Shown here: positions 10,906-53,100 of the stretch, in pieces | Layout of the letters: the number at the start of each line of letters is the position of its first letter | Position numbering within the stretch: position 1 is the stretch's first letter | DNA from: Sphagnum compactum | Lineage: Eukaryota | DNA: 64,000 nt | Direction: 5' to 3' | NCBI GenBank assembly: GCA_965153455.1 | Contig: OZ234493.1 | Location: forward strand, 3,782,001-3,846,000 | Program-made: the position numbers and the translations under genes | Notes under the pieces: generated by a model | What the model was told of the DNA's origin: nothing | Database searches by the model: none | The model's input: the letters and a program-made list of their open reading frames with translations, nothing else

Positions 10906-12815
10906 TTTAGTGGGTTATCTTTATTGTTTCACCTTTCATGTTTAGAAAATGAAATTCACCTACAATGGGAAAACCAAGATTGTAAACCTCACATGGAAAA
11001 CACAAATTGATGTTCAACATCATGGTGATTAATAAGCACCTTTTGAATCCACTACATAGATGGTGTGGGTATTCTCTAGTCATTGAATCTTCTTGCAAGT
11101 GAACAAACCCAAACTTACCGTTTGGGAATGTTACCATTGCCAATGTCAAATTGACCATGCACCAAACTCATTATAGTAGTCACACAATAACATTGTTGAT
11201 TTACCCTTCTTCTTTTAACACATGATACACTTATGAGTAACCAACACCATTGTTAGCTCATGGTACATAATCTTTCTTTCTTCACATGACTATTGCATTT
11301 GCATCGTCCCCATTTGAAAATGTCACCAAGCTAGTTACTAGGAGTTTGGCCCAATGAACTTTTACTCTTATATTTTCAAATATGTTCAACCCTTAAGGAT
11401 GTCGAAATTTTTGCTTTGTCATTTTTTTGTTGAATTCAAGTTGGTTTTCCATTTTAACCTTTCAATTTTGGCTTGAACTTAAAAACAAGACAAAAAAACT
11501 AAATGAGTTAATAAACGGTCTAACCTTTTGAACTTTAACACCTATGAACCCCCTATCTAAGTCCAAAGTTTCTATAGTTACCTCTTATCCCATCTCCTTA
11601 GTTAAGGCTACTAGCACTCGTTGGCCTTGCAACTTTTCAACTAAAGCCAATCCACAACATTTCAATTCTTCATAGATTTGCATCAAGATTTGCTCTCAAG
11701 CTCTTTGGCTTTCATGCCACATCATGGAGGTGCTATCCTATTCATGTTAGCATACACAACTTTTGGTTATGCATGCTAGCTAATTTAGCATATGCTTTCA
11801 AATGAAGTCCATCGTCAAGAATTTTCATTATATCAAAAATCATTGTTTTTACATTTATAGCATTGTGACTACAATAATTGTAAAGTCAAGGCTACTGTTG
11901 CAAAATGATTGACTTAGTTCATTTTGACTAAGATGAAAATTAAATGTGTCTTTTGTAACTGACTTTGATTTTTTATTTAATGAAATCAAACACAATTGGA
12001 TACACATGGTGAATGTGACACCTACATGGACTTTAGAGCTCTACTTGTGACTAAAATACACTTTTCAAATTGTACCATGGAATAAGATGTTTCATATATG
12101 TGCTTACCATGCTAGTTTTGATGTTACATATGTGCATTGAAATGCAAATATTTATATTAATTATTTAAATTCATGATAATACTATGATTTTCAAATTCTT
12201 AGAAGGTTGAATAACATGTAAACAAAATCAACTATTTCTCACATTCACTCTTTTTTAAAGCCATTGATTTATTTTTAAGATTGGAACTAAATTTCTGATG
12301 TATTTAAATTTAAATAATTTTATTAATTTTATGAAATTATATATTTAAATTAATCCAACTAATATTAATTAAAAATTTTTAATTAAATCAATTTGAAGTT
12401 GATTATATAATTCCACAAATGAAATTAACCACATATTGATGTTCTAAAATATTCAATTAATAGAAATATTATACTTAAATCATAACTTAGGGCCCAAATA
12501 AAAATATTTAAATTATGTATTATTTCGATATTTGGAAATTTTAATTACATGAAAATTTTAAGTAAATGTGAATATTAAATTAATTTCAAATAACATCTGA
12601 GTTTCTAAACCAAAAATACTTCTAATTCGTGAAATAAATATTAAACTACTATAATACATTTACATTTTTAAATTAAAAATTTCAATGTATTTAGGAAGTA
12701 GAAAAATTAATTGAATTTAATAATGAAATTAAAAACATGTGAAATTTTATTATCAAAATAAATAACATTTTTTAATGCATGAGATTTGAAAAAATATGTC
12801 TTTTGTGCTGACAAT

Positions 12816-35000: not shown

Positions 35001-36139
35001 TAAATTTGGTTTAAATTATTATGTAATATGTCATATTATAGTTAATTGATACACTAAACGGTTATAATAGGTCATAAATAATTGTATACATTACAAATGA
35101 AATAGATTAATTAATGAATAATTATGAAATTTTTATCAAAGATTGAAACAATAATTTTAATAATACCAAAAATAACATTAGTGAAATACCTCGATTACAA
35201 GTGAACATGACAATTATATGGTGATCTAGTTTTTATTAAGGCCTTTTTGTAAATTAGGCTAGTGAAATAAATGTAGTTTTTGTAATTGAAAAATGACAAA
35301 AATCTGAATGACTTATAAAATCGCAAATCAAATTTGATGAGTTGGTGAATTCAGGTTTAAAGAAAGGATGGTACATTTGATAATGACTTCTCTAATGGTA
35401 AAATTAAATTTCTTTTTTCATTTACTTAGTTTGGTCCTTATCTTGATTGATGTGGATCGTTGGGGGCAGCAAGAGGCTAACCTAAGAAGAATACCCACCT
35501 TGGTAAAGCTCCAAAATGAATGTGATTGGGACAAAGGTTGCAAATGCAAATGAACAAAGGTTGTGAAGCTACATGGACTCATAACATAGTTTAAACCCGA
35601 TAATAGGTCTTGATTTGTGGTTGCAACATAATCATATTTCTTTGGAGTTTATACACATTTGATGCATTCAAAGTTGTGGAAGCTTCAAATTTCATCTATG
35701 ATCATTTGGTTATTTGGTAGGTGTTCTTTCCCTTTAATTTGGTGATTTTTTTAATGGCCTTGATGTATCTGAAGCAACATTTTGAATTTTTTTTTTACAA
35801 GGTTATTTTTCTTATAGATTTAGGCTACATAAGATAACAAGGATGCTTATATGTGTGGGTTACTCTTTAAGTTGAAATATGGTATATTTCACAAAAAAAT
35901 GCAGATGTGAAATTAGATAACACATCATTAGTTCAAAAGTGGGGTGTAATTCATCAGTCTAAATCACTACGGGACTTTTAAAATGAAACATGTTCATCCC
36001 ACCCTAACCATTTCACCTTGCTTATCATTATAGGGTCACTATGTAATCATCATGTTTCAACATAGGTTGACATAATTCATTATTAATTGAAATATTTCAT
36101 TATAGTAAATAGGTTTATTTTAATGTTAATGTTTTAAAT

Positions 36140-36720
36140 ATTTTAGGTTATTGTATCTTAGGCTATTATATCGTAAGTTATTTAAGTTATTATACATTAT
36201 GTTATTATCAATTGTTTTTGGTTATTCCACCCTAATCTATTGTATTTTAGGTTATTATTGGCTATTATATGTTATTCCAACCTAGGTTATTTTAAGATAT
36301 TTTACGTTATTCCACCTTAAGTTATTTTCAATTATTTTACCTAAAGTTATTATGAACATTTTTACTTTAGGTTATTATATGTTATAGCCAAATTATTTTA
36401 AACTAGTTGAAACTATTCTATTGAAGGTTATACCTTACGTTATTATAGCCTAGACCAAACCTAAAATTACATAGGGTTTAATAATTAAAATAATCAAACC
36501 TATAATGAATATTTTAAAATAAAAAATAACCTAAATATACAAAGGTTGAATAACTTAAAATAATTAAAAATAACTTTGGATTGAATAACCTAAAATAATA
36601 AAAAATAACTTAAGGTATAATCATTAAAATAACTAAAATTAATTTAAGGTATAATAACCTAAAATAACCTAGGGTGGAATAATTTAAAGTAAATAAAAGT
36701 AATTTAAGGTGGAATGGCCT
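36140..36720. repeat. AT-rich AAAATAACCTAA/GGTGGAATAA motif array with an orientation flip at ~36450; continues at 50145-50545 and 51745-52030
   Basis: TTAGGTTATT motifs at 36140-36450, then AATAACCTAA motifs at 36460-36720. The same motif resumes immediately after 50143, so the array was split by the insertions. Confidence 0.75.
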
Positions 36721-36957
36721 CATCACAAACTTGCCCCTTCCATTTATTTGTGTTTTTACAACATTTTAACAATGTGTTTAAGGTTAATTGTTAACAAAGT
36801 GTTGATACAACCATTGATATGACGTTGTGATGACATTATAGCACATTGTGATCATTGCGTAAACCCTTATAACATCATATCAATGATTGATCAACACTTC
36901 ATTAGCATTTAACCTTGAACATACTGTTAAAATGTTGTAAAAACACAAATACATGGA
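36721..36957. mobile_element. Small foldback element with ~110-bp TIRs; right TIR interrupted and completed at 50124-50143
   Basis: Left arm CATCACAAACTTGCCCCTTCCATTTATTTGTGTTTTTACAACATTTTAACA. Right arm TGTTAAAATGTTGTAAAAACACAAATACATGGA + [13.2-kb insert] + GAAGGGGCAAGTTTGTGATG. Confidence 0.85.
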
Positions 36958-37417
36958 GCTACCGTGCGTTCTTATGTCACCACAATCACAACACATAACA
37001 TAAAAATACCTTGAATGGTACACCATATCCAAACCAATAGATTGACACACTTGCAACAACGCAAGAATCTAAACCCAAAACATACAAAACGAAAACACTT
37101 ATATAATAAAGAAAACTGCAAAGTAGAAACCATGCTCTAGAATCTCAAATTACCAAAAGTGATTTGAGGTCACATAATATGAGATCATATCCCATGAAAA
37201 ATATCCCGAACCTCATTCACACATGAATTGGTTCGAGATTTACTAATTAGGTTAACTAACCCAGTTTATGTTTAATTAATTAGGATTTAACTAATCAGCT
37301 AAACTAACACACCTAGTAGTTGTTATGCATTCCTATGTTAGCGCCTATAACCATCGTTATCACCACACTCATAACACATAACATAAAAATACCCTAAATG
37401 GTACACCACATCCAAAC
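36958..37417 (-). repeat. 3' terminal repeat block B1-A2-B2 of the retroelement
   Basis: CACCACA.TCA.AACACATAACATAAAAATACC.T.AATGGTACACCA.ATCCAAAC occurs twice, flanking a ~270-bp copy of 49853-50123. PPT-like AGATAGGGGGG (minus strand, ~37420-37430) precedes B1. Confidence 0.88.
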
Positions 37418-37655
37418 GGCCCCCCTATCTAAGGCTGAGATCCCCTTAAACCAAATAATATCATAAAACTATTTATTGAAAATCCACCATGAATGAACAT
37501 TTTGGTTCCAAGGCAAAAGAACCATTAGGCCGGATGCAAATGTGAGCCCCATCGTTAGTCGCCTAGTTGTAATCCTTCAAATCCCCAACTAAATGCAAAT
37601 TACCATGGAAGAAAACTTTAGATTAGTTATACTAAGTGACCCTAAGAACCTAGGT

Positions 37656-37799
37656 CTATTGGGTGCATCAAGGGCAAAACCATTTGCCAATTGCAACTTC
37701 TTCCATTGGTGGCATGAGACATCCCATATGCCAACCTCGAGAACACTTGTCACAAATCAACATAATGGCAGCTCCTAAAGCTTACCCACACAACATACA
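37656..37799 (-). pseudogene. PHD zinc finger at the end of pol
   Basis: CMLCG*ALGAAIMLICDKCSRGWHMGCLMPPMEEVAIGKWFCP*CTQ* fits C4-H-C3 with typical PHD spacing. Confidence 0.9.
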
Positions 37800-38870
37800 T
37801 CATACGCCAACTAGAACCACGGCTAAGGATGGGTCCATTTGGCCATACACTTTGGGAAGATGACATGGTGCGCAATTGCGCACATGCTCCTTCCATGTCT
37901 GACCATCTCGGCCTTCCAACAACAACATTCCATCACGTATAATAACACATCATATAGTCACATCCAAAGTGGTTGGTGTTGTCTACTGCAGGTTAACATA
38001 ATCTCCTTGTTCAAACCTTCAAATCTAAGACCAATAACCACTTCCACATATAGTGCCATAACGCAATGTATCTCGGTGTTGGGCAGTTGCCAAATTTTCC
38101 ATAGCCATGGGCATAACACATCGAAACAAGGTGGCTCATTGCTCACATGCCCGAATCCACACATTAAGATCATCCATGTTGATTACTACGATCGCATCTC
38201 GTCGAATTGAAACTAGTAACTCAGGCTCACGACCAAACAATAATATGAAAGGTGAAAAAGATGAAAGACAAGCTTGTCAATTGAACCTATACCCCATAAC
38301 TAACCATGGTAGCTATAAATCCCAATATGAAGTATGGCCTTTATCAAGACCATACTTTCGCAAACCTTATTTCACCATCTACACCATCCATTCAACTAAC
38401 CCGTTTGCCTCAAGATGGTCTCGTGGATCAATCAATGTTTTTTCACATAGCTTTTGGAATTCCCCACGAAATTTTGTACCTTGGTCAGTGAGAATTTCAA
38501 CTAGAGCCCCAAACCTACTAAGTACCCTGTCCAAAAATGCATACAATGCTCCTTCACTACTACAATCCGACAATGGAACCAACTCTAACCACTTGGAGAA
38601 ATGTTCAATCATAACCAAAACATATTGGTTATGTCAAGGTCAATGGGTCAACAAAATCCAAACTCTATTAATACCTAAGCCCCATAATTGGTAAGGGTTG
38701 TAGGTGAGGTGTAGGTACATTGAAAAATGCCCAAACTCAATTACACACCATACACCTAGAAACAAACTGTTGAACTTCCAATTGCATCCCTCACCACCAG
38801 TATTGTGTTTGGAACAAACTATATGTCGGACAAATCCCAAAATGGCCCAACTCTTCATGAGCATGCCTCA
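37800..38870 (-). pseudogene. DDE integrase (HHCC, rve core and C-terminal region)
   Basis: HEELGHFG...QYWW*GM...CMVC; SLDF; VMIEHFSKWLELVPL; LTDQGTKF; ANGLVE. Confidence 0.9.
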
Positions 38871-39329
38871 CAAGGCTTTCATGTGGTTTTGGGCAAAGCA
38901 CAACCTTCACTTGTCCATCTGCCCACATCTGTAGGAAGGAATTACCTTCCCATTTGAATCATTTGGCCCTATGCACAACACGGTCCCTTTCTTTGGGTGT
39001 TAATCCAGTTGGAACTTCATTTGCCTGCACATATGCAATAATAAGTGCGTCATCATAAATATATAGGGCACCATTACCCTCCAACTCCATGTCCACATAA
39101 TGGGAATCCCCATCATCTACACTAGTTTGAAGTACATCCCCATAACACCCCAATAAGGTACAAAGGTATGCAGAAGCATGCCATCTTGATACCACCTCCA
39201 AATCCACATCACCATGCTAATGAGCCCAAGTGGTATCCTCCGCGTTGCAACTTGGGTTCCGATTCAACCCATCGGCATCTCAATTAACCCTACCAAACCT
39301 GCGAATTATATCAAAGTCATATTCTTATA

Positions 39330-40600
39330 AGATAAGTGCCCACCTGGCCAACTTTCTTGTGAATCAATCTGATTCCATAAGGAATTTCAAAGGCTAGTGA
39401 TCAGTAATCAAAATGAATGGGCTACCATAAATATAACATCAGAATGATGAAACATCCTAAACATTACAAGGCACTCCCCCTCATATGAACTATATTTTGC
39501 CTTCGTTTTGTTGTTAGACTGACTTGCATATGCCACCACAAAATCTTCACCATCATCATCAAGTTGGGTAAGAACGGCTCCTAACCCTAAAGCACCCGAT
39601 CAATGTGTAATTGGAATGGTCGTCTTTGGATGGGTCGCTTCAAAATGGGGGTTGACGAAAGCATGGCTTTTAATTCTTGGAAGGCTTTTTCTTGTGGTTC
39701 ATCCCAAATGAACTCCTGGTCAATCTACGTCAGTCGAATTAAAGGTTTGGTTATGCTACTAAAACCTTTCACAAACCTTTGGTGGTAATTACACAAGCCC
39801 AGAAAAGTTCGTAACTGACTAACATCTATTCGTTGGGGAACTTGTGAAATGGCTTCAACCTTGGCCTTCTGAACCTTCAATCCATTTGGATAAATCATGT
39901 GACCTAGGTACTTTACCTAAGTATGAAAGAACCAGCACTTGCCTAAATGAAGCTTAAGGTTATGTTCCTTAAGTCTTCCAAACACCTTTCGCAAATAATG
40001 CATATGATCTCCTGGGGTCAAGCTAAAAACAATGATGTCATCAATGTAACATTTGGCAAAACCAAAACCCACCAACATTCGATCAACGACCCTTTGAAAT
40101 TTTGCAAGGGCATTTTTCAAACCAAATGGCAAAAACTTCCATTGGTACAAACAATCTTTCCCATGGGGGTCAATTCCCTAAAAAGTTGTCTTGACCATAT
40201 CACCCTCCCTCAATGGCAACTAATGGTAACCAGACCTTAAGTCCAAGGTATTGAAAACCTTGGCCTGCCCAAGGGCATCAAAGGCCTCCTCCGATAAAGG
40301 CATGGCGTATTTGTCTAACCGGGTCCATTTATTCACCAGACGATAATCCCCACACATGCAACGTTCAATCCAATTGCTAAAAATGTCCTTCTTAGTTGGC
40401 ATCACTATTGTTGAAGCATATTCACCCCTAGATAGTTCCACCAAACTAGCATTTAACAACTTTATTGTTTGAGCCTTTGAACCAAGGTTTTTTTCCACCT
40501 CACTAAGCCTATAAGCTCACCTAAAAATTGAATTATCATCCTCCAATATGATTTGGACCTCTTACCCTTTTAACTGACCCAATTCCTTCAAACTAAAGGC
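39330..40600 (-). pseudogene. Reverse transcriptase and RNase H (Ty3/Gypsy type)
   Basis: RCMCGDYRLVN, KYAMPL.EE.FD, FNTLDLRSGYH, YQWKFLPFGLKNA..KFQRVVD, CYIDDIIVFS, LKLHLGKC; RNase H GLGAVLTQLDDDGEDFVVAYAS..N...AKYSSYEGECL. Confidence 0.93.
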
Positions 40601-41009
40601 AAAACATCTAGTGAAATCTCGTATTATTTATCGTGCTTCATGCACCTCATCTCCTGTCATTGTTGGGCCAATTCTTGGTCCCATGTTTTTGCAATTACCT
40701 ATACCTTGGGTTGGGATGATGGAACATCCCCAACACCCGAGGATTGAAAGCATGCCTTGTGATTGCTATGCAAAATGTGGAAAAATGCCATCATGTCTTG
40801 GTGCTCCCACATCACCAATTTCCTGTTCCACACCCATAATGTTGCTTGGCATCCCTGATCCCATAATTGTCAAGGATGTATTTGTCTTGTTGTAACATCA
40901 CCCCCCCTTGCACCGCGATAACATACCCAACAAAAGGTGCAACAAATGAAATATGGGGTGGAATGGGTGGGTGAGATTGGCCAAAACGTAATTGTTTTGC
41001 TAAGACCAA

Positions 41010-41965
41010 GTTGAAAATCCATGTGAGGCAATTGAGATCCATAACTTGCCCCAAAATCCGCTTATGAGCTCCTTCGGAAATGCCTTGCATAGTTGTGGTG
41101 CCGGTGCGGAACCCAGTGGCCCATTCTTTCTCATCTCCATTGGGTTCTTTGGATGAATGGGAGTCCCAAATCATCTTTGGGCCCCCATTCCTAAATGCAT
41201 GAGAATGTGAAAAACTCAAAAATGTTGGTAGGGCTGCTTGTGGAAGGCCAACCCTATTGACCACAACCAAACATGGTCGGTCATCCTGACGAACCATGCA
41301 TGAATGGCATCTTGGATCCAATATGTCATCCACTAAACATGTGGGTGACCTATGAATGAACTCATTTGCTCGTTGGATCACCTTTGGTGGTGCTAGGTTA
41401 GTCCACATCCATCGAAACCAATGAGCTTGTGAACTAATTAAAGTAGCATCCACCTGCACTGGCTTGCTGATCCAAGCCCTAATTTGTTGCCATCCAACCA
41501 AAACAGTTGGCTTAAAATCCCCCAATGGTGGGACATTTTCCAACAAATATGCACATGGGTGCATATGTGACTATTGCAAATGTTGCACAACACAAATTAA
41601 TTCCCAGAATAAATTTGACCTGGGATCGAAAAGTCCATGACCCATACTTGCTTGTGAAAGACCTTGGCATGGCCATCCAAAATGACCAAATCAATTGGCC
41701 CACTCCTTGCCAAATCTAGTGCCCCCAGCAAGGTGATGTTGCTTAGTAAGGAATGTTGATAACCCCATATGGCCGATGTTGGTAACAAATGGGGATACCT
41801 TTGTTGCAACATCATGACATGTCGCATGGAGGCTTGTTTAGCTTGTGGACCCTTCTCCACATAATGGTATTTCCGAACTAAGATGCTCGATTGTAGAACT
41901 ATAGTTAATCCAAAACTAATGACTCCAAATAGCTCAAGTAGGCATATCCCACCCTTGGGAATATC
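41010..41965 (-). pseudogene. C5 cytosine DNA methyltransferase domain inside pol, between protease and RT
   Basis: Motif I LLELFGVISFGL; II YHYVEK; IV PIDLVI-GWPCQGLSQAS (catalytic PCQ, after a frameshift at ~41680); V GLFDPRSNLFWEL; VI YLLENV; VIII VDA...SQAHWFRWMWTNL; IX EPNGDEKEWATGF..GTT; X KRILGQVMD. Confidence 0.9.
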
Positions 41966-42762
41966 CCACTGAATAATCTTAATATCCAATGGGTTTAAAC
42001 CTGAAAGCCCATTACCAAGGTTCATAAGTGATTATGGGCTTGGTGAAAGCAGAATGTGCCAAGCTTGATGAATATAATGACCGATCGATGCCTAAAATCC
42101 AATCAATGTGCCCCATGGTGGCCTAGGATCCAATGGAGAAACTAGAATGATTGGCATCCCATGTGGCCTTGACATCGCCAATTCACCATTTGGAGGTGCA
42201 TCTTGGTCATGGACATTACCTTCCAACAATTCAAGTCCATGTGGAAGGCCTAAAAATTCAGCCAACATAGTTGACTTGTTAGATTTTCATGCTTGCCCCC
42301 CCAATGAATTTCATTGGTAATGAAACCTTGTGGCTAATTCATGTTTACCAGCCTAGATGGTAGTATGCGATTTCCTCCCAAAAATTAATGGTAACCCTTA
42401 GGGGGTACAACACCACACTCCAATCAACACATCATAGAACATAGCATGTGTGACCACTGTGAGGCAACTTTTGTCCCTCTACTCCCGGTTCTACAAGGTG
42501 ACTATACTTGAAAGCATAAATGTTACCGGTGAAAGACGAAGCGAGCGTACTTCTAGATGCTAGATTGCGTTTGTAGTTGAGATTAAATTTCTTTGCCGCC
42601 TATGCATCATTCACAACTTAACATTCATAGCTATATTTTTATTTTATTTTATTTTGTTATTATTATTATTTTTGATCCCCACATTCCCGATCCTAGAACC
42701 TTATACTAAATTGTCATCCCTTTAAACAAACTTTTATGAACTCAACACTTCCTTAAACTTGG

Positions 42763-43305
42763 CTACAACCAGCAATCATTTGAAGAATTGTTTCTCACAC
42801 CCAGATTGTTCAAATTTGGCTTGCTTTAGCTCTTTGAAAAGCTAACTAGTAGACGCACCTTCTTACCAAATCTTAGGATCTGCAGCTAAATAACTAGGAA
42901 ATTATGCTATAAAACCCGAGAGGATTTTGTGGAAGTAGTTGGTCCAACTTGACTGCAGACCACCAGTCACTTGGAGAATTGTTTCTCACACCCAAATTGT
43001 TCAAATTCAGCTTGCTTTAGCTATTTGGAAAGCTAACTAGTAGACGCACCTCCCTACCAAATCTCAGGATCTACAGCTAAATAACTAGGAAACTATGCTA
43101 TAAAACCCGAGAGGATTTTGTGGAAGTAGTTGGTCCAACTTGACTGCAGACCACCAGTCACTTGGAGAATTGTTTCTCACACCCAGATTGTTCAAATTCG
43201 GCTTGCTTTAGCTCTTTGGAAAGCTAACTAGTAGACGCACCTTCCTACCAAATCTCAGGATCTGCAGCTAAATAACTAGGAAGTTATGCTACAAAACCCG
43301 AGAGG
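42763..43305. repeat. Tandem repeat, 191 bp x~2.8, within the solo LTR
   Basis: G.AGAATTGTTTCTCACACCCA at 42782, 42973, 43164. Confidence 0.93.
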
Positions 43306-43543
43306 GTTTATTAACTTTTCCTAGAGTTCCAACTTCCCAATACTATTCTTACTCACCTCCATCCTTCCAAAACTCTTACCAAATCCCCCTTCTACTCTCT
43401 TTCCCTTTCTCCACTCCCAAATTGATCATCCTTTTCCTCCTCAAGAGCTTGTCAGAACTAAAACTCTCGAGATTGAATTAAAGGTCATCTCCCGTCGGAA
43501 AAAAAAGAGCCCCCGAATCACCCAAGTTCGCCTTTTAAAGAAA

Positions 43544-43847
43544 AGGAGAAGGAGAAGGAGAAGGAGAAGAACCCCTTGCTCGGTGGTCAATGGAAGGAGA
43601 AGGAGAAGGTCCCTTTGTTCGGTGGTCAATGGAAGGAGAAGGAGAAGGTCCCTTTGCTCGGTGGTCAATGGAAGGAGAAGGAGAAGGTCCCTTTGTTCGG
43701 TGGTCAATGGAAGGAGAAGGAGAAGGTCCCTTTGCTCGGTGGTCAATGGAAGGAGAAGGAGAAGGTCCCTTTGCTCGGTGGTCAATGGAAGGAGAAGGAG
43801 AAGGTCCCTTTGCTCGGTGGTCAATGGAAGGAGAAGGTTCCTTTGCA
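43544..43847. repeat. Tandem repeat, 39 bp x7, within the solo LTR
   Basis: GGTGGTCAATGGAAGGAGAAGGAGAAGGTCCCTTTG(C/T)TC at 43582, 43621, 43660, 43699, 43738, 43777, 43816. Confidence 0.95.
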
Positions 43848-44064
43848 CTTACTCCCACTTCCCCCCAAGCAAACTTACTTAAACCCTCACTTTTTATCTT
43901 TTGACACAAAGGTTTTACCTTACCATGGTCCTAGGCCATTCTTTACCCACTCCCTTCCTTTCCTTGCGTATAAATTACGATCACATAACTTGATGTCACA
44001 AATCCCCTCCACCTTCATTGCAATTTGATTTTTGTTGAAGATCTTTCCTCTCTTCCTTGCAAGC

Positions 44065-44487
44065 ATGGCGTCGCGCACAGTCACCTCCTACGGGCCCCAA
44101 GCCGCACAAGTGAACGAGGAACCGCCTTCGGAATTGTCTTTAGATTTGACTCTAACGCAGCATCCCCGTGATGAAGAACTCGAACCTCGAGAGGTGCGCG
44201 CTCGTCTCGAAGTTGAACCCCCTCAAGCCTGGTATTATCGCATTTCGCCAAACTCCCGCACCCTGGTGATCTTGTTACAAGTCGATCCTGCTTCCGGTGA
44301 CGAACCCGAAACCGTTTGTGAAGGTTGTTATGAAACCGAAGACACTTCTATCTTTGCTTGGTCTTCAGTTCCCGGCGTTGGACACTATCGTTGGTTGCGC
44401 GGTCCGATTCGTCGCCTACCTCCTAACTGCAAGGCGGACTATCTAGTTCGTACTATTCGACGCATCCTAGACTTCCTACAGCTATGA
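44065..44487 (+). CDS. Intact 140-aa ORF of unknown function carried by the solo LTR
   Basis: ATG in good context (AGCATGGCG); uninterrupted, CpG-rich, protein-like composition; TATAAAT at ~43969 and AATAAA at ~44552. No family recognised. Confidence 0.55.
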   Translation: MASRTVTSYGPQAAQVNEEPPSELSLDLTLTQHPRDEELEPREVRARLEVEPPQAWYYRISPNSRTLVILLQVDPASGDEPETVCEGCYETEDTSIFAWSSVPGVGHYRWLRGPIRRLPPNCKADYLVRTIRRILDFLQL

Positions 44488-45073
44488 ACCATGGCATAGG
44501 CCAGGACTTAACATGTACCCATAGCTCCTTGTCGAGCTTACTCATAATCTAAATAAACGTTTCAGTCCTTATGAGACTCCTATTATCATTGGCACACTAC
44601 CACATCATCTATTAAACCATTAAGCTGATTCGAATTAATCCTTCGTTCCTATGGCTTGAAGATTGCTCTATCTCTATTGGGCCTTTCACTAACCCCCTCC
44701 TCCTGCTTCACAGATTCCCAACATCCTTGCTGCTTGTTAAATACTGATACAAGACTAATGTTTTGTTGCACACCATGAACTCCGGTGTTTGTTTTTCCTT
44801 CCCTCAACTTCCGAGCGATTTCTCGTTCCTTCTTACGCTACTAAGGTTCTAAAACTATAGTTTACCAACTTTTTGCTGAAGAAAAGGACTAACCCAACCA
44901 ATATCGCATTTCGGAAAACAAAACAACCCCCCCACACCCTGTGCGCATTCCTCTACCCTTATTATAACACAAAGTTGTTAAACCCCCCTAAAAACCTCAC
45001 CACACTCGAATATTCCTAACACAATTCTTAAACATTGAGACTATTAGCCATGGCCATGTCGGTATGGCTCACA

Positions 45074-45300
45074 ACCACTGCTCGAGCCTGCACAGTAGTG
45101 TAATCTACAGCTTGTTGGGATTAACCTGGATCGCAATCGCTTGTTTGGTTAACCCTCGTGTTTTTTCTAACCCACCCATGGATATCAAAATGTGATATGG
45201 ACATGGGTCAAGATCAACATTAGTTAATCCAAGACCATCAACAACAACTTTGCCCAACATCAATGGTTGAACACCATAATCAAACAACACCCTAAAGGGT
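45074..45300 (-). pseudogene. Aspartic protease, N-terminal part (C-terminal part at ~42300-42457)
   Basis: RVLFDYGVQPLMLGK (decayed D-S/T-G-A site) ... YDVLIG. Confidence 0.75.
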
Positions 45301-46019
45301 TTATACTATCATGGTGATGCCCCCCTCAACTAAACCATTTCTTCCTCATTATGCACAACCACAACCCCATGAATAACACTTGCTCGATCAATAGTTGGTC
45401 ATGAAGGAAGGTCATGAAGTTTGGCCATAGCCACATGCCAAGATTTAGGTTGAACCTTGGACACCTATGTGTGGTTGGGCTTAGAAATTGGATGGGGAAC
45501 TACAAGAGGCACAAACGTGTCCTCCGACTTAATTTTTGGTGTTCCACCATTTTCACATAATGTTGCCGCCAAGCAAAGCACGATTCCTAGTTGAATACCT
45601 GAAATGGCCAATGTCTCAGTAGAAAATAGTGGCGCCTGACACACTGCTTTGGCCACCCCCATCAAACTTATGGGTGCCTTGGACCTAGGAATGGAATTAG
45701 GCACTTTCCTTGAGATTCTACTTGAAGTTGATGCCCCAATGGGATTGGGAATGGTGTTTGTTAACATAAATGATTATGGGAACTACACTTGACGTTGAGC
45801 CTCACCATGTTAAGGATCCAATCTCTCATTAGCGCCTCATGGTTTTGGCATTCACATACTAGCTCTTGTCACTGGTGCAACTATGGAAATCATCTCACTA
45901 GGATTTGGAACCATAACATGGTTTCCATCATATGTTGCCCATGACTCATGATCTTTTGACATAGGTGACATAATCTCATTTGGTGCCACTGATCCCAAAA
46001 AACCAGCTCCACAAAAGAA

Positions 46020-47400
46020 TTATTGATCCACATCTGACCCATATGATTGGTCATATTCCCTATCTTTAGCCTTCCTTGGCTTAGATGTAGTAGATTTCAC
46101 CTGGGTCGCCATGCTTGTGACTAGGGCCTCCAACCGTGCAAACTTAGCCTCCATGGTGTTGGGTTGGCTTTGAGTTAACTTAGTGGTCGGCCCTTTGTTG
46201 GCTGCACCTTTCCCCTTTTGGCCTTTCCCAGAACCTTGGCCTTTACTAGCATTCATGTTCTATGATTGGCCTTGCCGTAATTTTAGGTGAAATGTGAAAC
46301 AATGATCGGCATCATGCCCATATGCATGATAATGGGAACATGGCAAGTTAGGATTAAGGTTGGAAATTGTGGCTTGTGGTGGATTGGGACAATCCTTCTT
46401 CTTATGAGGCCCACCACATTTCCAACATTTGTCCTCTCCACCTTGTTCTACTAAATAAGATGTGAAACCACCACTTAAATCTAGTGGCACCCTTGGCCTT
46501 AGGTGGTGTAGCTTTAGTGGCCAACTTCATGATTGTTAGTGGGCTAGAAAATTCCTTGGGTTTCCCTTGTTGAACCCAAAGATAACCACTCGTTCCTCCA
46601 CCATGTTCATCTCAATCCTTTTTGACAATTGAAACACATTAGCCAAAGTGGGTTGGGAAAGTTATAATAAAATGGCATCTCGCACCCGATGCTTGAGCTC
46701 TTTGTTCAAGATTCCATACCAAAACTAGACTGCTTGGGCTTCTATGACACCTTGTGTCACCATCATTAACCTACACAATTGTGCATAGGCTTCTCGCAAA
46801 CTCTCATGGGGCTTACGTTGGAAATCTTGCAAACTCCGTAACTTCTCAGTCGTAACCCCTTGATAATTTTGCTGCAATTCACGGAAGAATTCCATAACTA
46901 GGTTAAATACGAGCAATGGACCCCATGTACTAGTGGATGCCCATGCACCACCACCCTTGGTAGTTCCACCACTTCCAATGGTTCCACTTTTAATGGTTCC
47001 ACTACTAGTGGCACTTCCACTCCCACTTGCCAAACTAATGCTAGGAGTTGCCATTGCACCACTTGGGGACATAATTCCCGTAGTGATAGAAACATAATTG
47101 GGAAACCAATATAACCACCACTCCTCAATCTAGATTTCATGGGCACGCCTGAATTCATAATTGTCATCCATAGACGGCCCTTCCAAATGTTGAAACAAAC
47201 CCTTCCATACCATGAAGGGTGTGAATAGCTGGGGATTACACATTTGCTGCATATCACACTAGCTGTTAAATTCCTGGATCAAATCATTTAGCTCAATGGT
47301 GCCAACTGCCCTTGAATATCGATGGGGCCTTTTGGCGGCTCCATACATTTCTTCCATGTCCCACAATAGTGGTGGGGTGACAAACCTTGGAGAAATATTT
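46020..47400 (-). pseudogene. Gag with zinc knuckles
   Basis: FFRELQQNYQG...LRSLQDFQRKPHESLREAYAQL (retrotransposon gag core); CWKCGGPHKKKDC and decayed CSHYHAYGHDADHC knuckles. Confidence 0.8.
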
Positions 47401-49852
47401 GTCACAGAATCTGAAGAATCTCCCCCAGGTGATGATGAAGGTGGTGTGAATGGTTTGAACTACACCTCTCGCCTAGTGAAACCACTAGTAACAGTGTCCT
47501 TGTCCTTAGAATCTTGTGTCACCTCCGTGATGAACCCTAAACCTTAACTTGGGTATCCCCCTTAAAATTCAATTACAAAAAGGTGATACACCTACGATGG
47601 CTCAAACAAGATCTACAAGGATGTTGAACCTATTGCAACTTAACCAAACCCCCATGCATAACATGAACCCAGGGTTGTTGCACCTATATGGCTAGGGCAC
47701 TTGCACCCACAAAAACATTTCATAGGGCTAACAAACTAAGGCACACTATGAACACAGGTGGTCTCCCAGTCACGACAACAAACAATGGGACATCTTGGTG
47801 ATCAAATCCAGACATATTTGCAACTATGCCTCTTAATACAACCTACACCCTAACTGAAACCTAATCAACACGTCCAAGAGAACTAAGAGTCAAGTAGGAC
47901 CTATTTAGTGATCATGATTGAGTGGTAGCCTTATCCAATGCCCGGCCATTAACCACACCAATCACAACCCCTAGGCTCACTGCGACAATAATGACACGCA
48001 TGGGAAGGCACATAAGCTTTCACCTTAAGTTTCACATTAAACAATAAGCACTAATGACCAAGTGGTCAACATGAGAGCATGTGTTCACCTCCAAGTTGTA
48101 GCTGAATGGCACACACCTTGGTAATCCCTTTACCCCTTGAAATCATATGATAATCTGACCAACATGTTAATAGGCAATAGGCACATGCCAACAAACACAA
48201 GTGGAGGTGCACAACTCATGCAACACAAATCTCCACTTTTGTGATCCCCCGCACATGAATCGCAACAAGAATTCAAATCCTCCACATTTGCTGATGGTGC
48301 GGCACTCCACCACCTAAGGTGCAAAAAATATGATTCATTAGCACAATGCTAAATCACCAAATATTTGGTACGAAAAAGTTGGCCACACATTTCGTCTCTT
48401 AGAATAAACCTTCAAAAGTGCATGTCTCCAACTGAGCTGAAAACTCCCACGTTAAAAATGTTCTTCACTAAAAACTAACTGACACAAAAAGCTTTTGATT
48501 CGACTTTTCCGTGGGTGAGAACTGAATTCCCAAAATTGAATGGCAAATAATTCCACAATTGCCAAATCAACCTTTGGCCTTCAAAACTTTTTGTCCCCAA
48601 AACTTTTACAACTTCACATGCATATAATTATCTTCTCCAAGAATTCAATGATGTAGATGGTTTGTCAATCCGACTTCGTATGCAAAAGATATGAATTTCC
48701 AAAAAAATTCAAAATGAAAATATAAATTAATTTTCTGTCCGATCTGAAAAATGGATGAAAAAAACAAAAATAAAAATGTTGGCAGGTTTGGATTGGTGCC
48801 GAACTTGTGCCCTAGGTCCAAGAATTTGGAAAAAATGAAAAACAAAAAAGGAGGTCCAGATTGGACCCCCCCCTTGACCCTTTTTATCCTAAGCCTCCCT
48901 CGAGGTACACGAGCCTCTGCTTGTGCCCAAACCTCGGAGGTTCGGAAGAAAGCTTGAGCTCCCAACAATGTGGTTGGAGCTCAGCTCTCTCCACCGCCAC
49001 CTCTACTTTTTTTTACTTTTTTTCTTCCTTCCTCTTCTTTTCCTTCTCCTTCCTTCCTTCTTCTTCTCCTTGTTTCTTCTCCTTTTCCCTATGGTTGTAT
49101 CTACGAGCTGCAACTCCTCCTCCTTTTTCATTGTTATTTGTTGGCCCTTGCTGCAACTTCAACAAAAGAGGCAATCACGGCGGGGAGCTCCTCTCCCCAC
49201 CTTTTTTTGCTCCCATGTTGCAGCCGCACCTACTCTCCCAACAACAAGATCGACCAAGGGCACCCATCGCCCCAGCTCTCCTTGCGAATTAGCATTGATG
49301 ACCAGGTAGCTAGGAGCTCAAAATATTGGCGATGGTGGTGGTGGTTCATGTCGCCATCGTCACTACTATACCTATAGGATACCAACAAAGAAAGACAAAA
49401 GGAAGGAGAGAGAAAGGGGAGTGAGAAAGAGGGGAAATAAGAAAATAAAAATGAAAAACAACAAAAGGGGGGGCCCTTTGTGATCAAGCTAGGGGCTTTC
49501 CTCTTGTGCTTTTTGAACACCTCCAAATTCTAAGGACTTGGCCCTATTTAGGTTCAACTCCCAAAGGAGTTGTACACAAAAAACAAGTACAAAAACATCA
49601 AAATCATTAAGCGATCTTTGACCATGATCCACGAACAAACGGTATTTGCAGCCTGAGCAAAATTCTTGTGAAACCAACTTGCAATATAAAAACCAAAACA
49701 AACAACACAACACTTACTCCTAACCCAAACTCTTGTGCATAACACACACACAACAAAAAACCAAAAAATAAAATCTCAGTGCTAAAACAATTACAGCCTA
49801 GTTGTAACACAAAAATAATTAGTTGGACTTTTGGTGATTCAAAAGACTAATT

Positions 49853-50123
49853 CACTTGCAATAACGCAAAAATCCAAGCCCAAAACATAGAAAACCAAAA
49901 CACTTGTATAACAAATAAAACTACAAAGTAGAAACCATGTTTTGGAATCTCAAATCACCAAAAGTGATTTGAGGTCACACAAGATGGGATTATATCCCAT
50001 AACAAATATCCCGAACCCCGTTCACACATGAACTAGTTCAAGATTAATTAATTAATTTAACTAACTTAGTTTATTTTTAATTAACTAAAACGTAACTGAA
50101 CAATTAAACTAACACACCTGACA
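49853..50123 (-). repeat. 5' terminal repeat A1 of the retroelement (~270 bp)
   Basis: Collinear with 37048-37318, mostly transition differences; begins TG on the minus strand. Confidence 0.9.
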
Positions 50124-53100
50124 GAAGGGGCAAGTTTGTGATGTTAAAATAACCAAAAATAGCCTAAAGTATAATAATTTAAAATAACCAAAGGTAAATA
50201 ACTTAAATAATCTGAAGTGGAATGGTTTTAAATAATTAATAATGTTTTAAGATAAAATAGCCTAAATAACTTAGGGTGGAATAATTAATAATAGCCACTA
50301 ATAATTTTAAAAACATAACCCAGATAACTTAAAATGGAATATAACCTATAATGACATAGGGTGGAATAATAAAAAATAACGTAGGGTGGAATAACCTAGA
50401 ATGATTAAAAAAATAATTTGAAATGATCAAAAGTAGCTAAAGGTAGATTAACTAGTAATAGTATAAGTAGATTAACTTAAAATAGCCTAAAGCACAATAG
50501 CCTATAATAACCAAAGTTGGATTAACCAATAATATCCTAAAATAGTTGGTAGAAATGAAATTTAAATTCAAGCAGAATATTTCACACTACTATAACAACA
50601 TATTTGCATTTCACATGCATATGTTCACTATTTTTGTCTTAAATCTCAACAAAATTAACACTAGCATCCATTCCAACATCAAATTCATAATTATTGCATA
50701 TAAAAAAAAATTGCACTTCAAAATACATTTTAAAAACTCCAAAAACAATATTACAATTCATTTCATCAAATCTAACATTATAGAAAATTCCCACAAAATG
50801 AACATAAAATTCACTGTAGAAGTTTGTGTTTTTTTGTAATACTAAAAACATGAATCCAAATTACAACGTGATCCCATGTTTTGTTGAAAAAAAATCCATA
50901 ACAACACTTAAAATTTGTGTTATATCAAAACAAAGTCCGTGGTTTTCTACTGGAAGTACCTCTAGCTCCTCCTACTCTTCTCTAAAACTTCTTCGTCTCA
51001 TCTTTTCCTCCTCTTCTCTTGTTCTCCAAAACTTTCCCCTTTTGAACTATCCCAAGTCACATCATCATGATCCAAACAATAAAAATTCAAAATTCAAACT
51101 AAAAAAGTTCCCTAATTAGTCCCTATCCTAACTGCCTTGTTCATCCAAAATCACATATTCATCGTACCCCCTTAACAATAGCTTAAGGTGTCAAGGACAC
51201 AAAGAACCATAAGAACAAAGGCTAAAAGAAATGTGTAAGTATAACTTTCAAATAATTAACAAAACAAGGGTATGTGATTAAAAAATAAGAACAAGAACCT
51301 AAGATGTGCAAGACAAACATGAAAACGGATCTTTAAATTATGTTGACATATGTAAACATGAACATAAAAATAACATGACAAGGTTATGGTGTAAGATTGT
51401 GCTTAAAACTAGTGTTGAATAAACTAAAGGAAATGAAAGGTCCTACTTTTATTTCTACGCCTTTGGGGATTTAGGTCAAGGAAGCTTCCAAGGAGGCTTT
51501 TATGTGTGCATCAAGTAAAGAAACTTCTTAAGAACCTTCATAACTGAAGTTCAATTAGGACTTAACTCAAAGTTGACTGGGAGTTAATTAGGAGTTAATT
51601 ACAACTTAATTGGGAGTTAACTATGAAATAATTTATACTTAATTATAAATTAACAAGAAGTTAATTAGGAGTTAAAGATGAACATTATGGATGAATTCCA
51701 TCCATTAGAAGATGGTGTCTAATGTTCGCATCCATCACATAAGGTAGAATAACCCTAAAACTTATAATAAATATGGGTGGATTAACCAAAAGTAAAATAA
51801 CCTAATATATACTTAAAATAGCCAAGGGTGGTTTAGTTGAAAATAATTTATAATAAAATAAAATAAATAACTTAAGGTGGATAACTTAAAATAATGTAAA
51901 ATAACTTAAGATTAGCCTAAAATCCTAGCCTATGGTAGCTTAGAAATAACTGAAGGTATTTTACACTAACCTAGGAATAACTTATAGTAGCTTACAGTAA
52001 TCTAGGGATAACTTAAGACTAACATAGGAACCAAACCTATAGTAAGTTCTACACATGTTAGGAAAAAAATGTGCATAATAATGTGTGGTGACAAATCATT
52101 TCATGTATTTAAATAATGATCCAATAATCAACAACTTGTTTCTTAGGCATGGAGATGAAAGGAGGTGAAAGGTTCAAACCTTCACACTTACATCTAGGTG
52201 GGTTGGGTGAAAACACATTGAGGTGGCTAAGTTTTGATGGATTATAGACCCTTTTTTAAAGTCCTTTTCTAATGTAGATGAAAATTCGCTTAAAATATGA
52301 ATATTTACATGATATTGAAATTAACAGTTTTTCCATTTCCAAGTTCAAGTCATGATGTTATAAGGCATTAAAAATGTATCCTAAAAAATAATTTTAAAAT
52401 AATTACTTTAAATGCTTAAAAAGATTTTATAGTTTATGGGATTTTGAAAAGTCCATAACATAATAAATTAAAATCACATTCCATTCATTCAATGCATATT
52501 TTATTTTTAAAACATAATTCATTCAATATTCCAAATTTTCAAACACATAAGACTAACACATTATACAATAAAAGTCCATATCCATGAATTTTGTAGGGCG
52601 TTACAAAATTTGTTGCCAACATTCAAAAGTCCATTACTTATTAAATAATTAAAATTTTGATATGTCTTTTTACATTTTTAAAATGCCAATTCTATTAACG
52701 TTACATATGTGAATCCTTTTCTTGATATTTCAATGAAAATATTAATGTTCTATATTTAAGTTTCAAAGACATAGGCAAAAAATTATAAGTATGGCACCTA
52801 AAAGGGACTGTGTACTGTGCTTTCACCCTACAAGGTTCTTGGATGTTTAGCATAATCTAGGTTCCTATCCTAACCTAGCTATGAACTAGGAAGTTAGTAT
52901 AATAAATTAACTATCAATGAATTTGACTAGTTATTAGTGAATTAATTATTAATGAACCAACTAATTATTAGTGAAGTCATTTGTCCATAACCATAAGTTG
53001 GTCCTTGTTCATTAAGGGGTTGACCACTTTCGCCTTGATAAATTTGTCAAATTTCACTCAAAATTTAGTAAAGTACAAACAAAAATGAAACACATATTGA

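Follow-up and report, generated by a model that had tools for sequence, protein, structure and literature searches.

Introduction

Retrotransposons of the long terminal repeat (LTR) type and retroviruses are taught to possess two equal LTRs that are made by reverse transcription and whose tips are acted upon by the integrase. In retroviruses, the attachment (att) sites lie at the LTR tips and 2-LTR circles are held to be dead ends, as is joined-end cDNA (tandem-LTR or circular) in textbook accounts generally. The lack of a target-site duplication (TSD) is a property of the DIRS order, represented by PAT-like and Ngaro elements. These carry split direct repeats arranged A1...B1-A2-B2, for which definitions (PMC4157794) and replication models (PMC7192593) have been given. 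Here, we describe a decayed Ty3/Gypsy-type element that ends in split repeats of this form, together with the repeat family to which it belongs. It lies in a 64,000-nt stretch of the moss Sphagnum compactum (GCA_965153455.1, contig OZ234493.1, positions 3,782,001 to 3,846,000; hereafter the window, in whose coordinates all features are given).

The closest known element is KnitGypsy-Dnmt3 of the alga Klebsormidium nitens (de Mendoza et al. 2018), for which the legend of Fig. 4c describes DIRS-like repeats together with Gypsy domains, the DIRS arrangement being given as "A-coding region-B-A-B" (PMC5890265). It shares with the moss family a Gypsy-type pol, a C5 DNA methyltransferase (DNMT) within the polyprotein and this repeat layout, and it is by the methylase domain and the layout that the moss family joins its kind. 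The host differs, being a Klebsormidium alga rather than a moss, and the window copy has decayed and grown to 13 kb. In the passages of PMC5890265 considered here, capture of the DNMT is read as specific to the K. nitens lineage. A 2026 preprint mentions "streptophytes (Gypsy-DNMT3)" in passing; beyond these two sources, the literature searched named neither KnitGypsy-Dnmt3 nor Gypsy-DNMT3, and in the literature on split direct repeats and on Gypsy, DIRS and integrase we found no title or abstract treating the termini of such elements. Split repeats combined with Gypsy domains are already in print, and what is new here is the family in a new host group. The same passages of PMC5890265 give no TSD, terminal dinucleotides, 2-nt junction spacer, primer binding site (PBS), polypurine tract (PPT) or mechanism for KnitGypsy-Dnmt3; relative to them, the 4-bp TSD, the TG...CA ends, the 2-nt spacer, the self-priming PBS, the position of the PPT and the out-of-register reading proposed below are new.

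Split Repeats in the Window Copy and Its Family

The element occupies positions 50123-36960 of the minus strand (computed length 13,164 nt), on which its features are read in the sense direction, and it interrupts a foldback resembling a miniature inverted-repeat transposable element (MITE). The 5′ repeat A1 (49840..50123, 284 nt) starts TGTCAGG, the corresponding family start TGTCAAGTGTG following unrelated flanks, and is 83.6% identical over 280 nt to an internal copy, A2 (37035..37318; 49840-50119 vs. 37035-37314 by blastn). A2 lies between two copies of a second repeat, namely the T/G-rich B1 (37321..37417, 97 nt, ending ...ATAACA), delimited by repeat comparison and family alignment, and the terminal B2 (36960..37034), the two being 91% identical over 58 nt (37360-37417 vs. 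36977-37034). The family alignment shows B2 to be a complete B minus ~22 nt internally, which accounts for the unequal B lengths (99 and 77 nt) in an original prediction made from the sequence alone, and its end ...CACGGTA has decayed from the family ...CACAACA. A 2-nt spacer, AC (37319..37320), separates the B1 end (...ACA) from the A2 start (T[G>A]...) and forms an internal CA-NN-TG junction, and the A2/B2 junction reads ...CTTTTG/GTTTGG.... Both pairs of split repeats had been recognized in that prediction, with boundaries within 0-13 nt of the refined ones, as had the interrupted foldback.

The foldback comprises outer inverted repeats of 20 nt each, at 50143-50124 and as reverse complement at 36740-36721, and inner arms (36957-36890 and 36806-36739) that are 88% complementary. 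The outer repeat on the 5′ side (50124..50143) ends in CTTC (50127-50124), the 5′ copy of the target duplication; the decayed 3′ copy, GCTC (36956..36959), precedes the rest of the host foldback (36721..36955, inverted repeat I1), the empty site having been reconstructed from foldback symmetry. The outer end of the foldback is a repeat boundary elsewhere as well, with loose contig ends at 36721/36722 in four sequencing runs.

No second copy of the element was found within the window. The family was sampled as 111 metagenome contigs recovered by a 21-mer in A, onto which segments of the window were mapped, and the 111 A copies proved to be 72 distinct ones as judged by their ends. In 27 of these 72, flanking DNA is followed directly by A and the internal region (25, plus 2 with a small border deletion); 15 are enclosed in a B-A-B arrangement, preceded by 3′ internal sequence wherever the contig reaches that far; and 5 are solo A-B units with flanks on both sides, the remaining copies being cut by contig ends or insertions. 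Manual grouping by flank similarity gives ~26 independent flank/A sites (5′ ends and solo units) and ~12 independent 3′ ends. The B-A-internal arrangement of an ordinary B+A 5′ LTR is absent among the 72 distinct copies, with B preceding 0/27 of those that run into the 5′ internal region, and so is A-B-A. A second subfamily, in which the 3′ half of A is different, has an identical layout. The A...B-A-B structure is a property of the family, neither an accident nor an assembly error of the window copy. In place of the two equal LTRs of Ty3/Gypsy elements, the 5′ end is A alone and the 3′ end is B-A-B, which is the A1...B1-A2-B2 pattern of split direct repeats that defines the PAT-like and Ngaro members of the DIRS order.

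The family is present in moss metagenome runs (as a small share) and contigs. Reads and contigs mapped onto 36700-42740 at 80% likeness reveal it as highly repeated and decayed by transitions. Differences between copies over this segment (runs X21, X1, X9 and X14) are mostly C>T (~573-696 places) and G>A (~470-552), a dominance expected for long-methylated repeats. An apparent boundary at 37417 was traced to contigs with the A/B junction mapping onto B1, and two loci considered as alternative 3′ ends (L023 and L033) are simply truncated or rearranged.

Two kinds of unusual unit were also seen. Three loci (L008, L037 and L104; L008 1672-2487) hold an 816-bp element of the form A-internal-B, with ~430 nt of internal sequence and a perfect 4-bp TSD but neither a PPT nor a second A; it derives either from deletion or recombination or from an A-internal-B route. 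Three others (L003, L021 and L083; e.g., L003 11176-11522) hold a solo A-B unit with the perfect TSD GACA in which part of A (~196-282) is inverted, the inversion breakpoints falling at the self-primer hairpin described below and at the A end.

Termini and Target-Site Duplications

Throughout the family, A always starts TGTCAAGTG... (TGTCAAG...) after unrelated flanks, and the terminal B always ends ...GCACACAACA (...ACAACA) before unrelated flanks. The internal B1/A2 junction consists of these same two ends plus the 2-nt spacer (...ACA-AC/AT/GT-TGT(CAAG)), which is missing at the outer ends of the element. Duplication of the target was assessed at nine independent sites where the two ends are both visible, namely solo units, a single short element of A-internal-B form and the window copy, by comparing the 4 nt before TG with the 4 nt after CA. 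The match is perfect at five of the nine sites (L001 AACT, L003 GACA, L008 ACTA, L109 ACCA and L047 ATGT), 3/4 at L028 and L076, and 2/4 at L017 and in the window copy (CTTC at 50127-50124 vs. GCTC at 36959-36956), for which an alternative register gives 3/4 (CTTC vs. CTCC). A 4/4 match occurred in 0/100 shifted control comparisons, and a 5-bp duplication was found at none of the nine sites.

The family thus has TG...CA ends and 4-bp TSDs, as left by a DDE integrase that joins two CA-3′OH ends. Such ends with a TSD of 4-6 bp are characteristic of Ty3/Gypsy elements, and the absence of a TSD that marks DIRS elements is not observed. The original prediction held that there was no TSD and that only 2 nt (GA) were duplicated, a statement superseded by the family data; the imperfect duplication of the window copy fits decay in an old copy with 16% divergence between its A repeats. 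The expectation that other copies would show the same A...B-A-B ends without a TSD was accordingly borne out at many loci as regards the ends and contradicted as regards the TSD. The alternative outcome, that other copies would have paired TG...CA LTRs with 5-bp TSDs, was encountered neither among the 72 distinct A copies nor at the nine sites.

Coding Remnants and an Intact Relative

Reading frames are broken throughout the coding region of the window element, and its domains were identified by a Pfam scan at E ≤ 1 of 104 translated minus-strand pieces covering 37472-49954. The matches follow the order RVT_1, RT_RNaseH_2, Integrase_H2C2, rve and PHD (PHD E 1e-8), with PF00145 upstream of the reverse transcriptase (RT). 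The RT, RNase H, integrase (H2C2 and rve) and C-terminal PHD finger span 37659..40672 and are colinear with the second open reading frame (ORF) of an intact relative, L112 (47-67% identity); the order RT-RNase H-integrase with H2C2 and a DDE core is that of Ty3/Gypsy elements. The C5 cytosine DNMT domain (40968..42130) matches PF00145 at 41574-41690 (E 9.6e-6, 25.7 bits, cut-off 22) and is 36-44% identical to ORF1 of L112. An aspartic protease (PR) remnant (45129..45299) aligns by tblastn with residues 701-757 of L112 ORF1 (46% identity, E 4e-11), and upstream of it a possible gag remnant with a CCHC-like knuckle (46263..47129) is suggested by its position and by matches under the Pfam cut-offs (Retrotrans_gag E 0.15, zf-CCHC E 0.79). 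The original prediction was right in recognizing an H2C2-DDE integrase and no tyrosine recombinase: the scan found no Phage_integrase (PF00589) match at E ≤ 1 in the 104 pieces, which include the 47500-49850 region singled out at the time for such a search.

A PDB sequence search with the 252-aa DNMT-like ORF returned chance matches only (E ≥ 0.25), and its identity was established instead from the Pfam match on a neighbouring piece and from homologs with 41-46% identity that lie inside gag-protease-DNMT polyproteins of 1250-1430 aa carrying PF00145. L112 is a 9285-bp contig whose ends overlap by 127 nt, giving a collapsed unit of 9158 bp with two intact ORFs only, encoding gag-PR-DNMT (likewise with PF00145) and RT-RNaseH-integrase(H2C2, rve)-PHD. 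Segment by segment, the window element matches L112 in the same order, with 36-67% identity. This establishes the coding set of the lineage as gag-PR-DNMT plus RT-RNaseH-integrase-PHD, without a tyrosine recombinase. The PR and DNMT matches are ~125 residues apart in L112 vs. a ~3-kb stretch in the window, with no such stretch in L112. This stretch contains tandem arrays (42756..43837) of 191 bp × 2.9 (42756-43309) and 39 bp × 7.3 (43554-43837), which may reflect expansion or a nested insertion. At 42458-42533, contig depth is ~3-fold above that of neighbouring bins and loose ends cluster on both sides in several runs, suggesting a separate short high-copy repeat embedded there.

Relatives of the RT-integrase-PHD protein are named from K. 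nitens (46-48% identity to L112 ORF2), Closterium, Marchantia, Calypogeia, Riccia and Haematococcus, and some of them, including those from Marchantia and Closterium, carry PF00145. Three relatives (P0112, P0120 and P0122) have a Dam-type adenine methyltransferase (PF05869) instead of, or beside, a C5 DNMT, an echo of the 2026 preprint on DAM-LTR elements. Scans of viral contigs produced no matches to L112 ORF2 and only two distant DNMT matches (28% identity) to the gag-PR-DNMT protein. L112 is filed in a cyanobacterium-labelled bin, and a related DNMT fragment (P0001) is named as an Obscuribacterales protein; the former is a eukaryotic retrotransposon contig, and both look like binning contamination.

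Candidate Signals for Reverse Transcription

The borders of the repeats coincide with candidate priming sites. Directly before B1 lies the polypurine tract AGATAGGGGGG(CC) (37418..37430), and a AAATAGGGGGG(CG)-like tract directly upstream of B1 is conserved in all 16 distinct loci that show the internal-to-B1 junction as well as in the window. Directly after A1 lies a putative self-priming PBS, AATCACCAAAAGT (49827..49839), which is the exact reverse complement of ACTTTTGGTGATT (49953..49965), a segment comprising the loop plus the 3′ arm of an A1 hairpin and putatively the first 13 nt of the transcript. TATAAT (49989..49994), a putative promoter element, is 29 nt upstream of this putative self-primer and transcript start. 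Over 26 copies of the 5′ end, the complementarity is 13/13 in 15, 12/13 in 7, 11/13 in 2 and 10/13 in 2, as compared with at best 8/13 after 3′ or solo A copies, and the centroid RNA fold pairs the self-primer with the PBS. A tRNA-type TGG site is not present after A1. By sequence, a putative PBS adjoins the 5′ repeat and a putative PPT the 3′ repeat, as in Ty3/Gypsy elements, in agreement with the earlier proposal that the LTR is B+A with a PPT-like tract before B1.

The noncoding DNA of L112 is not alignable by eye to that of the moss family, yet its layout is alike. A G-run PPT (GCTAGGGGGGG) is followed by a ~105-nt T/G-rich segment ending ACACGACA, then GC, then TGTCACGG, so that the counterpart of the spacer junction is ACA GC TGT. 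It also has a hairpin with a 12-bp stem and, ~160 nt downstream, an exact 13-nt complement of the hairpin loop and 3′ arm.

Self-priming has been predicted for moss and club-moss Tcn1 elements (Neumann et al., PMC6317226). Like Tf1 and sushi-Tcn1, the moss family has after its 5′ repeat a site complementary to repeat-internal sequence at the likely, though putative, transcript start (TATA at -29). In those elements the LTRs are ordinary and paired and the integrase carries a C-terminal chromodomain, whereas the moss family has split repeats and an integrase that ends in a PHD finger instead.

Other assignments of the signals were set aside. An LTR consisting of A+B, with its PBS at the start of A2, was dropped as no primer complementary to the A start was found beyond A1 itself (a search of the element for such complements gave 7 matches vs. 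2.9 expected by chance). A second polypurine tract at the B end fits the moss family poorly and L112 not at all, and a likeness of "B end plus polyA" to the PBS, as a second priming site, was too weak and found after many looks.

Fixed differences distinguish neither the 5′ from the 3′ copies of A nor B1 from B2 (best p 0.002 over 316 columns; mean identities 0.82/0.83/0.81). Such uniformity would be expected if a single template gave rise to both copies anew in each cycle, in what is a weak test owing to star-like decay, the B1-B2 identity within elements (~0.82) equalling the value between elements. The first G of A (TGT>TAT) is mutated more often in the internal A2 than in the outer A1 (7/16 vs. 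2/28) and that of B (GTTTGG>ATTTGG) more often in the internal B1 than in the outer B2 (10/20 vs. 1/21), an excess that may come from context-dependent deamination after C or CG.

A Proposed Route of Integration

The explanation that we favour, with a confidence slightly better than even, is that the window holds a ~13.2-kb long-dead Ty3/Gypsy copy of the DNMT plus PHD-integrase lineage (of the "Gypsy-DNMT3" kind) inside a MITE, and that elements of this lineage integrate via joined cDNA ends. The steps that follow are read from sequence signals shared by two diverged lineages. Transcription would start inside A, ~30 nt past the TATA box. The initial 13 nt of this RNA would fold back onto the site directly after A1 and prime the minus strand, as in Tf1, and the G-rich polypurine tract directly before B1 would prime the plus strand. 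With the start inside A, the PBS at the A1 end and the PPT at the B1 start, ordinary reverse transcription would yield a linear cDNA of the form [B-A]-internal-[B-A]. The fit to the observed borders is exact, the B start being where plus-strand DNA, and the A end where minus-strand DNA, would be expected to start, and the A2/B2 junction corresponds to the two predicted ends of the cDNA directly adjoining each other. Ends of the integrase type, TGT... and ...ACA, meet at the B/A junction inside such an LTR, 2 nt apart, and not at its tips.

Joining of the cDNA ends might then produce a tandem-LTR circle, or it might come about when the finishing plus strand switches template end to end, or through end joining that follows strand transfer. 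Nicking of both strands by the integrase at the CA-NN-TG junction of the PBS-proximal LTR would turn this molecule into an A...B-A-B insert. Nicks after both CAs would create two ends, each with a recessed CA-3′OH and a 2-nt 5′ overhang, as in the processed ends of retroviruses. Integrated copies always have the structure TG-A-internal-B-A-B-CA with a 4-bp TSD, for which a joined-end intermediate seems the most likely route, as deduced from the sequence. The A2/B2 junction resembles that of a retroviral tandem-LTR circle, in which the cDNA termini are placed head to tail, and the B/A junction is a palindrome-like CA-NN-TG site. In contrast to retroviral circles, the att-like site would be 97 nt inside the LTR as defined by reverse transcription, and the joined-end junction is found in every integrated copy. 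The original prediction had offered a Gypsy lineage with a noncanonical circle-integration route as one of two possibilities; the family-wide occurrence of A...B-A-B agrees with it, its premise of an absent TSD has fallen, and the joined-end route itself is probable rather than observed. More speculatively, the terminal B may supply a U/G-rich signal for 3′-end formation downstream of A2.

A broader proposal, which we regard as possible but would not yet back, is that this lineage has uncoupled the ends made by reverse transcription from those used by the integrase, with the internal CA-NN-TG as its att site, and that productive integration requires joined-end (tandem-LTR or circle-like) cDNA.

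Several points weigh against integration via joined cDNA ends. The intermediate, the transcript and the cDNA ends are all deduced from DNA signals. A symmetric tandem-LTR circle should also yield A-B-A-internal-B, seen in 0/27 of the A copies running into the internal region, so that the proposal requires an unexplained directionality. If the two internal sites of a linear cDNA were used, A-internal-B would result, of which there is one example, the 816-bp element with a perfect TSD at L008, in a scan that, being anchored in A, cannot fairly count full-length forms without A2. L112 is a collapsed circular contig in which the A/B junction is not visible. The 21-mer used for fetching fixed 8 of the 13 paired PBS bases, precluding any display of covariation within the family. 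Decay has affected every one of the 111 family copies, none of which retains an ORF longer than 317 aa, and repeat identity within elements equals that between elements, which makes it unreadable which B templates which.

Alternative Explanations

The main rival is a DIRS-like restoration of the ends from B1/A2, that is, DIRS/PAT/Ngaro-style replication with a borrowed DDE integrase. The transcript would lack the outer parts of A1 and B2, the B1/A2 template would restore them and join the ends into a full-length circle, and the DDE integrase would open this circle. We consider this unlikely, although the layout is exactly the A1-B1-A2-B2 of the PAT and Ngaro "split direct repeats" (PMC4157794, PMC7192593), the internal junction is two element ends abutted with a 2-nt spacer, and the promoter part of A1 cannot be contained in an RNA starting at the predicted site. 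Such replication makes no prediction that B should start at a conserved polypurine tract or A end at a self-priming site, whereas a canonical set of R, PBS and PPT is present and conserved across two lineages; no fixed 5′/3′ differences mark the portion of A for which separate inheritance would be expected, and the directionality problem is shared, no A-B-A forms having been seen. That problem would disappear if an unconventional reverse transcription made linear A-internal-B-A-B cDNA directly, without a joined or circular stage, for instance from a second plus-strand primer at the B end (on the left) and by the finishing plus strand switching to a copy of B (on the right), and the integrase acted on true termini. 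A directional polymerase step would explain the single orientation of the layout, the canonical TG...CA ends and 4-bp TSDs would be expected, and the A/B junction is somewhat richer in small indel variants than other junctions (~5/21 distinct copies, by eye). Against this, the B end is not purine-rich in L112, the element contains no complement of the A start to prime a strand beginning at the B end, and every concrete scheme that we drafted needs an end-to-end jump to place B to the right of A; we judge this route, too, to be improbable.

Two further explanations have next to no probability. A one-off event or artefact, be it the single 2-LTR circle insertion that was the other possibility in the original prediction, a local duplication that B underwent later, or a misassembly, is refuted: other assemblies supply, on independent contigs, 15 distinct B-A-B ends, 27 flank/A junctions and 5 solo A-B units, and a second subfamily is alike. 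In its favour would speak only the single copy in the window and its imperfect target duplication. A true tyrosine-recombinase element of the Ngaro or PAT kind containing nested Gypsy genes would account for the repeat layout and for that alone; it is countered by the want of a Phage_integrase match in the Pfam scan, by L112 having two ORFs only, by the TG...CA ends and 4-bp TSDs, and by the PPT and PBS of the Gypsy genes abutting B1 and A1. More generally, the moss family shares the A1...B1-A2-B2 layout of PAT-like and Ngaro elements but differs from them in its H2C2-DDE integrase, the failure to find a tyrosine recombinase, its TG...CA ends, its 4-bp TSDs, the PPT and PBS at the repeat borders, and a methyltransferase that is C5-type rather than Dam-like. 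It does not belong to the DIRS order, because no recombinase is found and TSDs are made.

Implications

The whole moss family keeps Gypsy genes, TG...CA ends and TSDs, yet has the split repeats that are linked to tyrosine recombinases and circles, and the passages of PMC5890265 extend the pairing of Gypsy domains with split repeats to its algal relative. A PPT at the B start, a PBS at the A end, a CA-NN-TG inside the LTR and a 4-bp TSD turn what was a single line of a figure legend into a proposal open to testing, that of integration from joined cDNA ends, which bears on the origin of DIRS and Ngaro termini. If the lineage has indeed uncoupled the ends made by reverse transcription from those used by the integrase, split direct repeats arose in a Gypsy element with a DDE integrase, and the passage from LTR elements to those of the DIRS/Ngaro type would have in this lineage a living model or even its ancestral type. 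LTR-finding software that expects paired LTRs will miss such elements or place their boundaries wrongly. The known spread of methyltransferase-carrying Gypsy elements is widened from charophyte algae to bryophytes.

Other Features of the Window

The DNA on either side of the foldback (36139-36710 and 50145-50540) is AT-rich and made up of degenerate 25/35-nt units (AATAACC-TAAAATAAC-like), which occur in both orientations and on both sides of the element. A separate RT fragment at 11270-11566, with 35% identity to residues 22-118 of L112 ORF2, belongs to another element.

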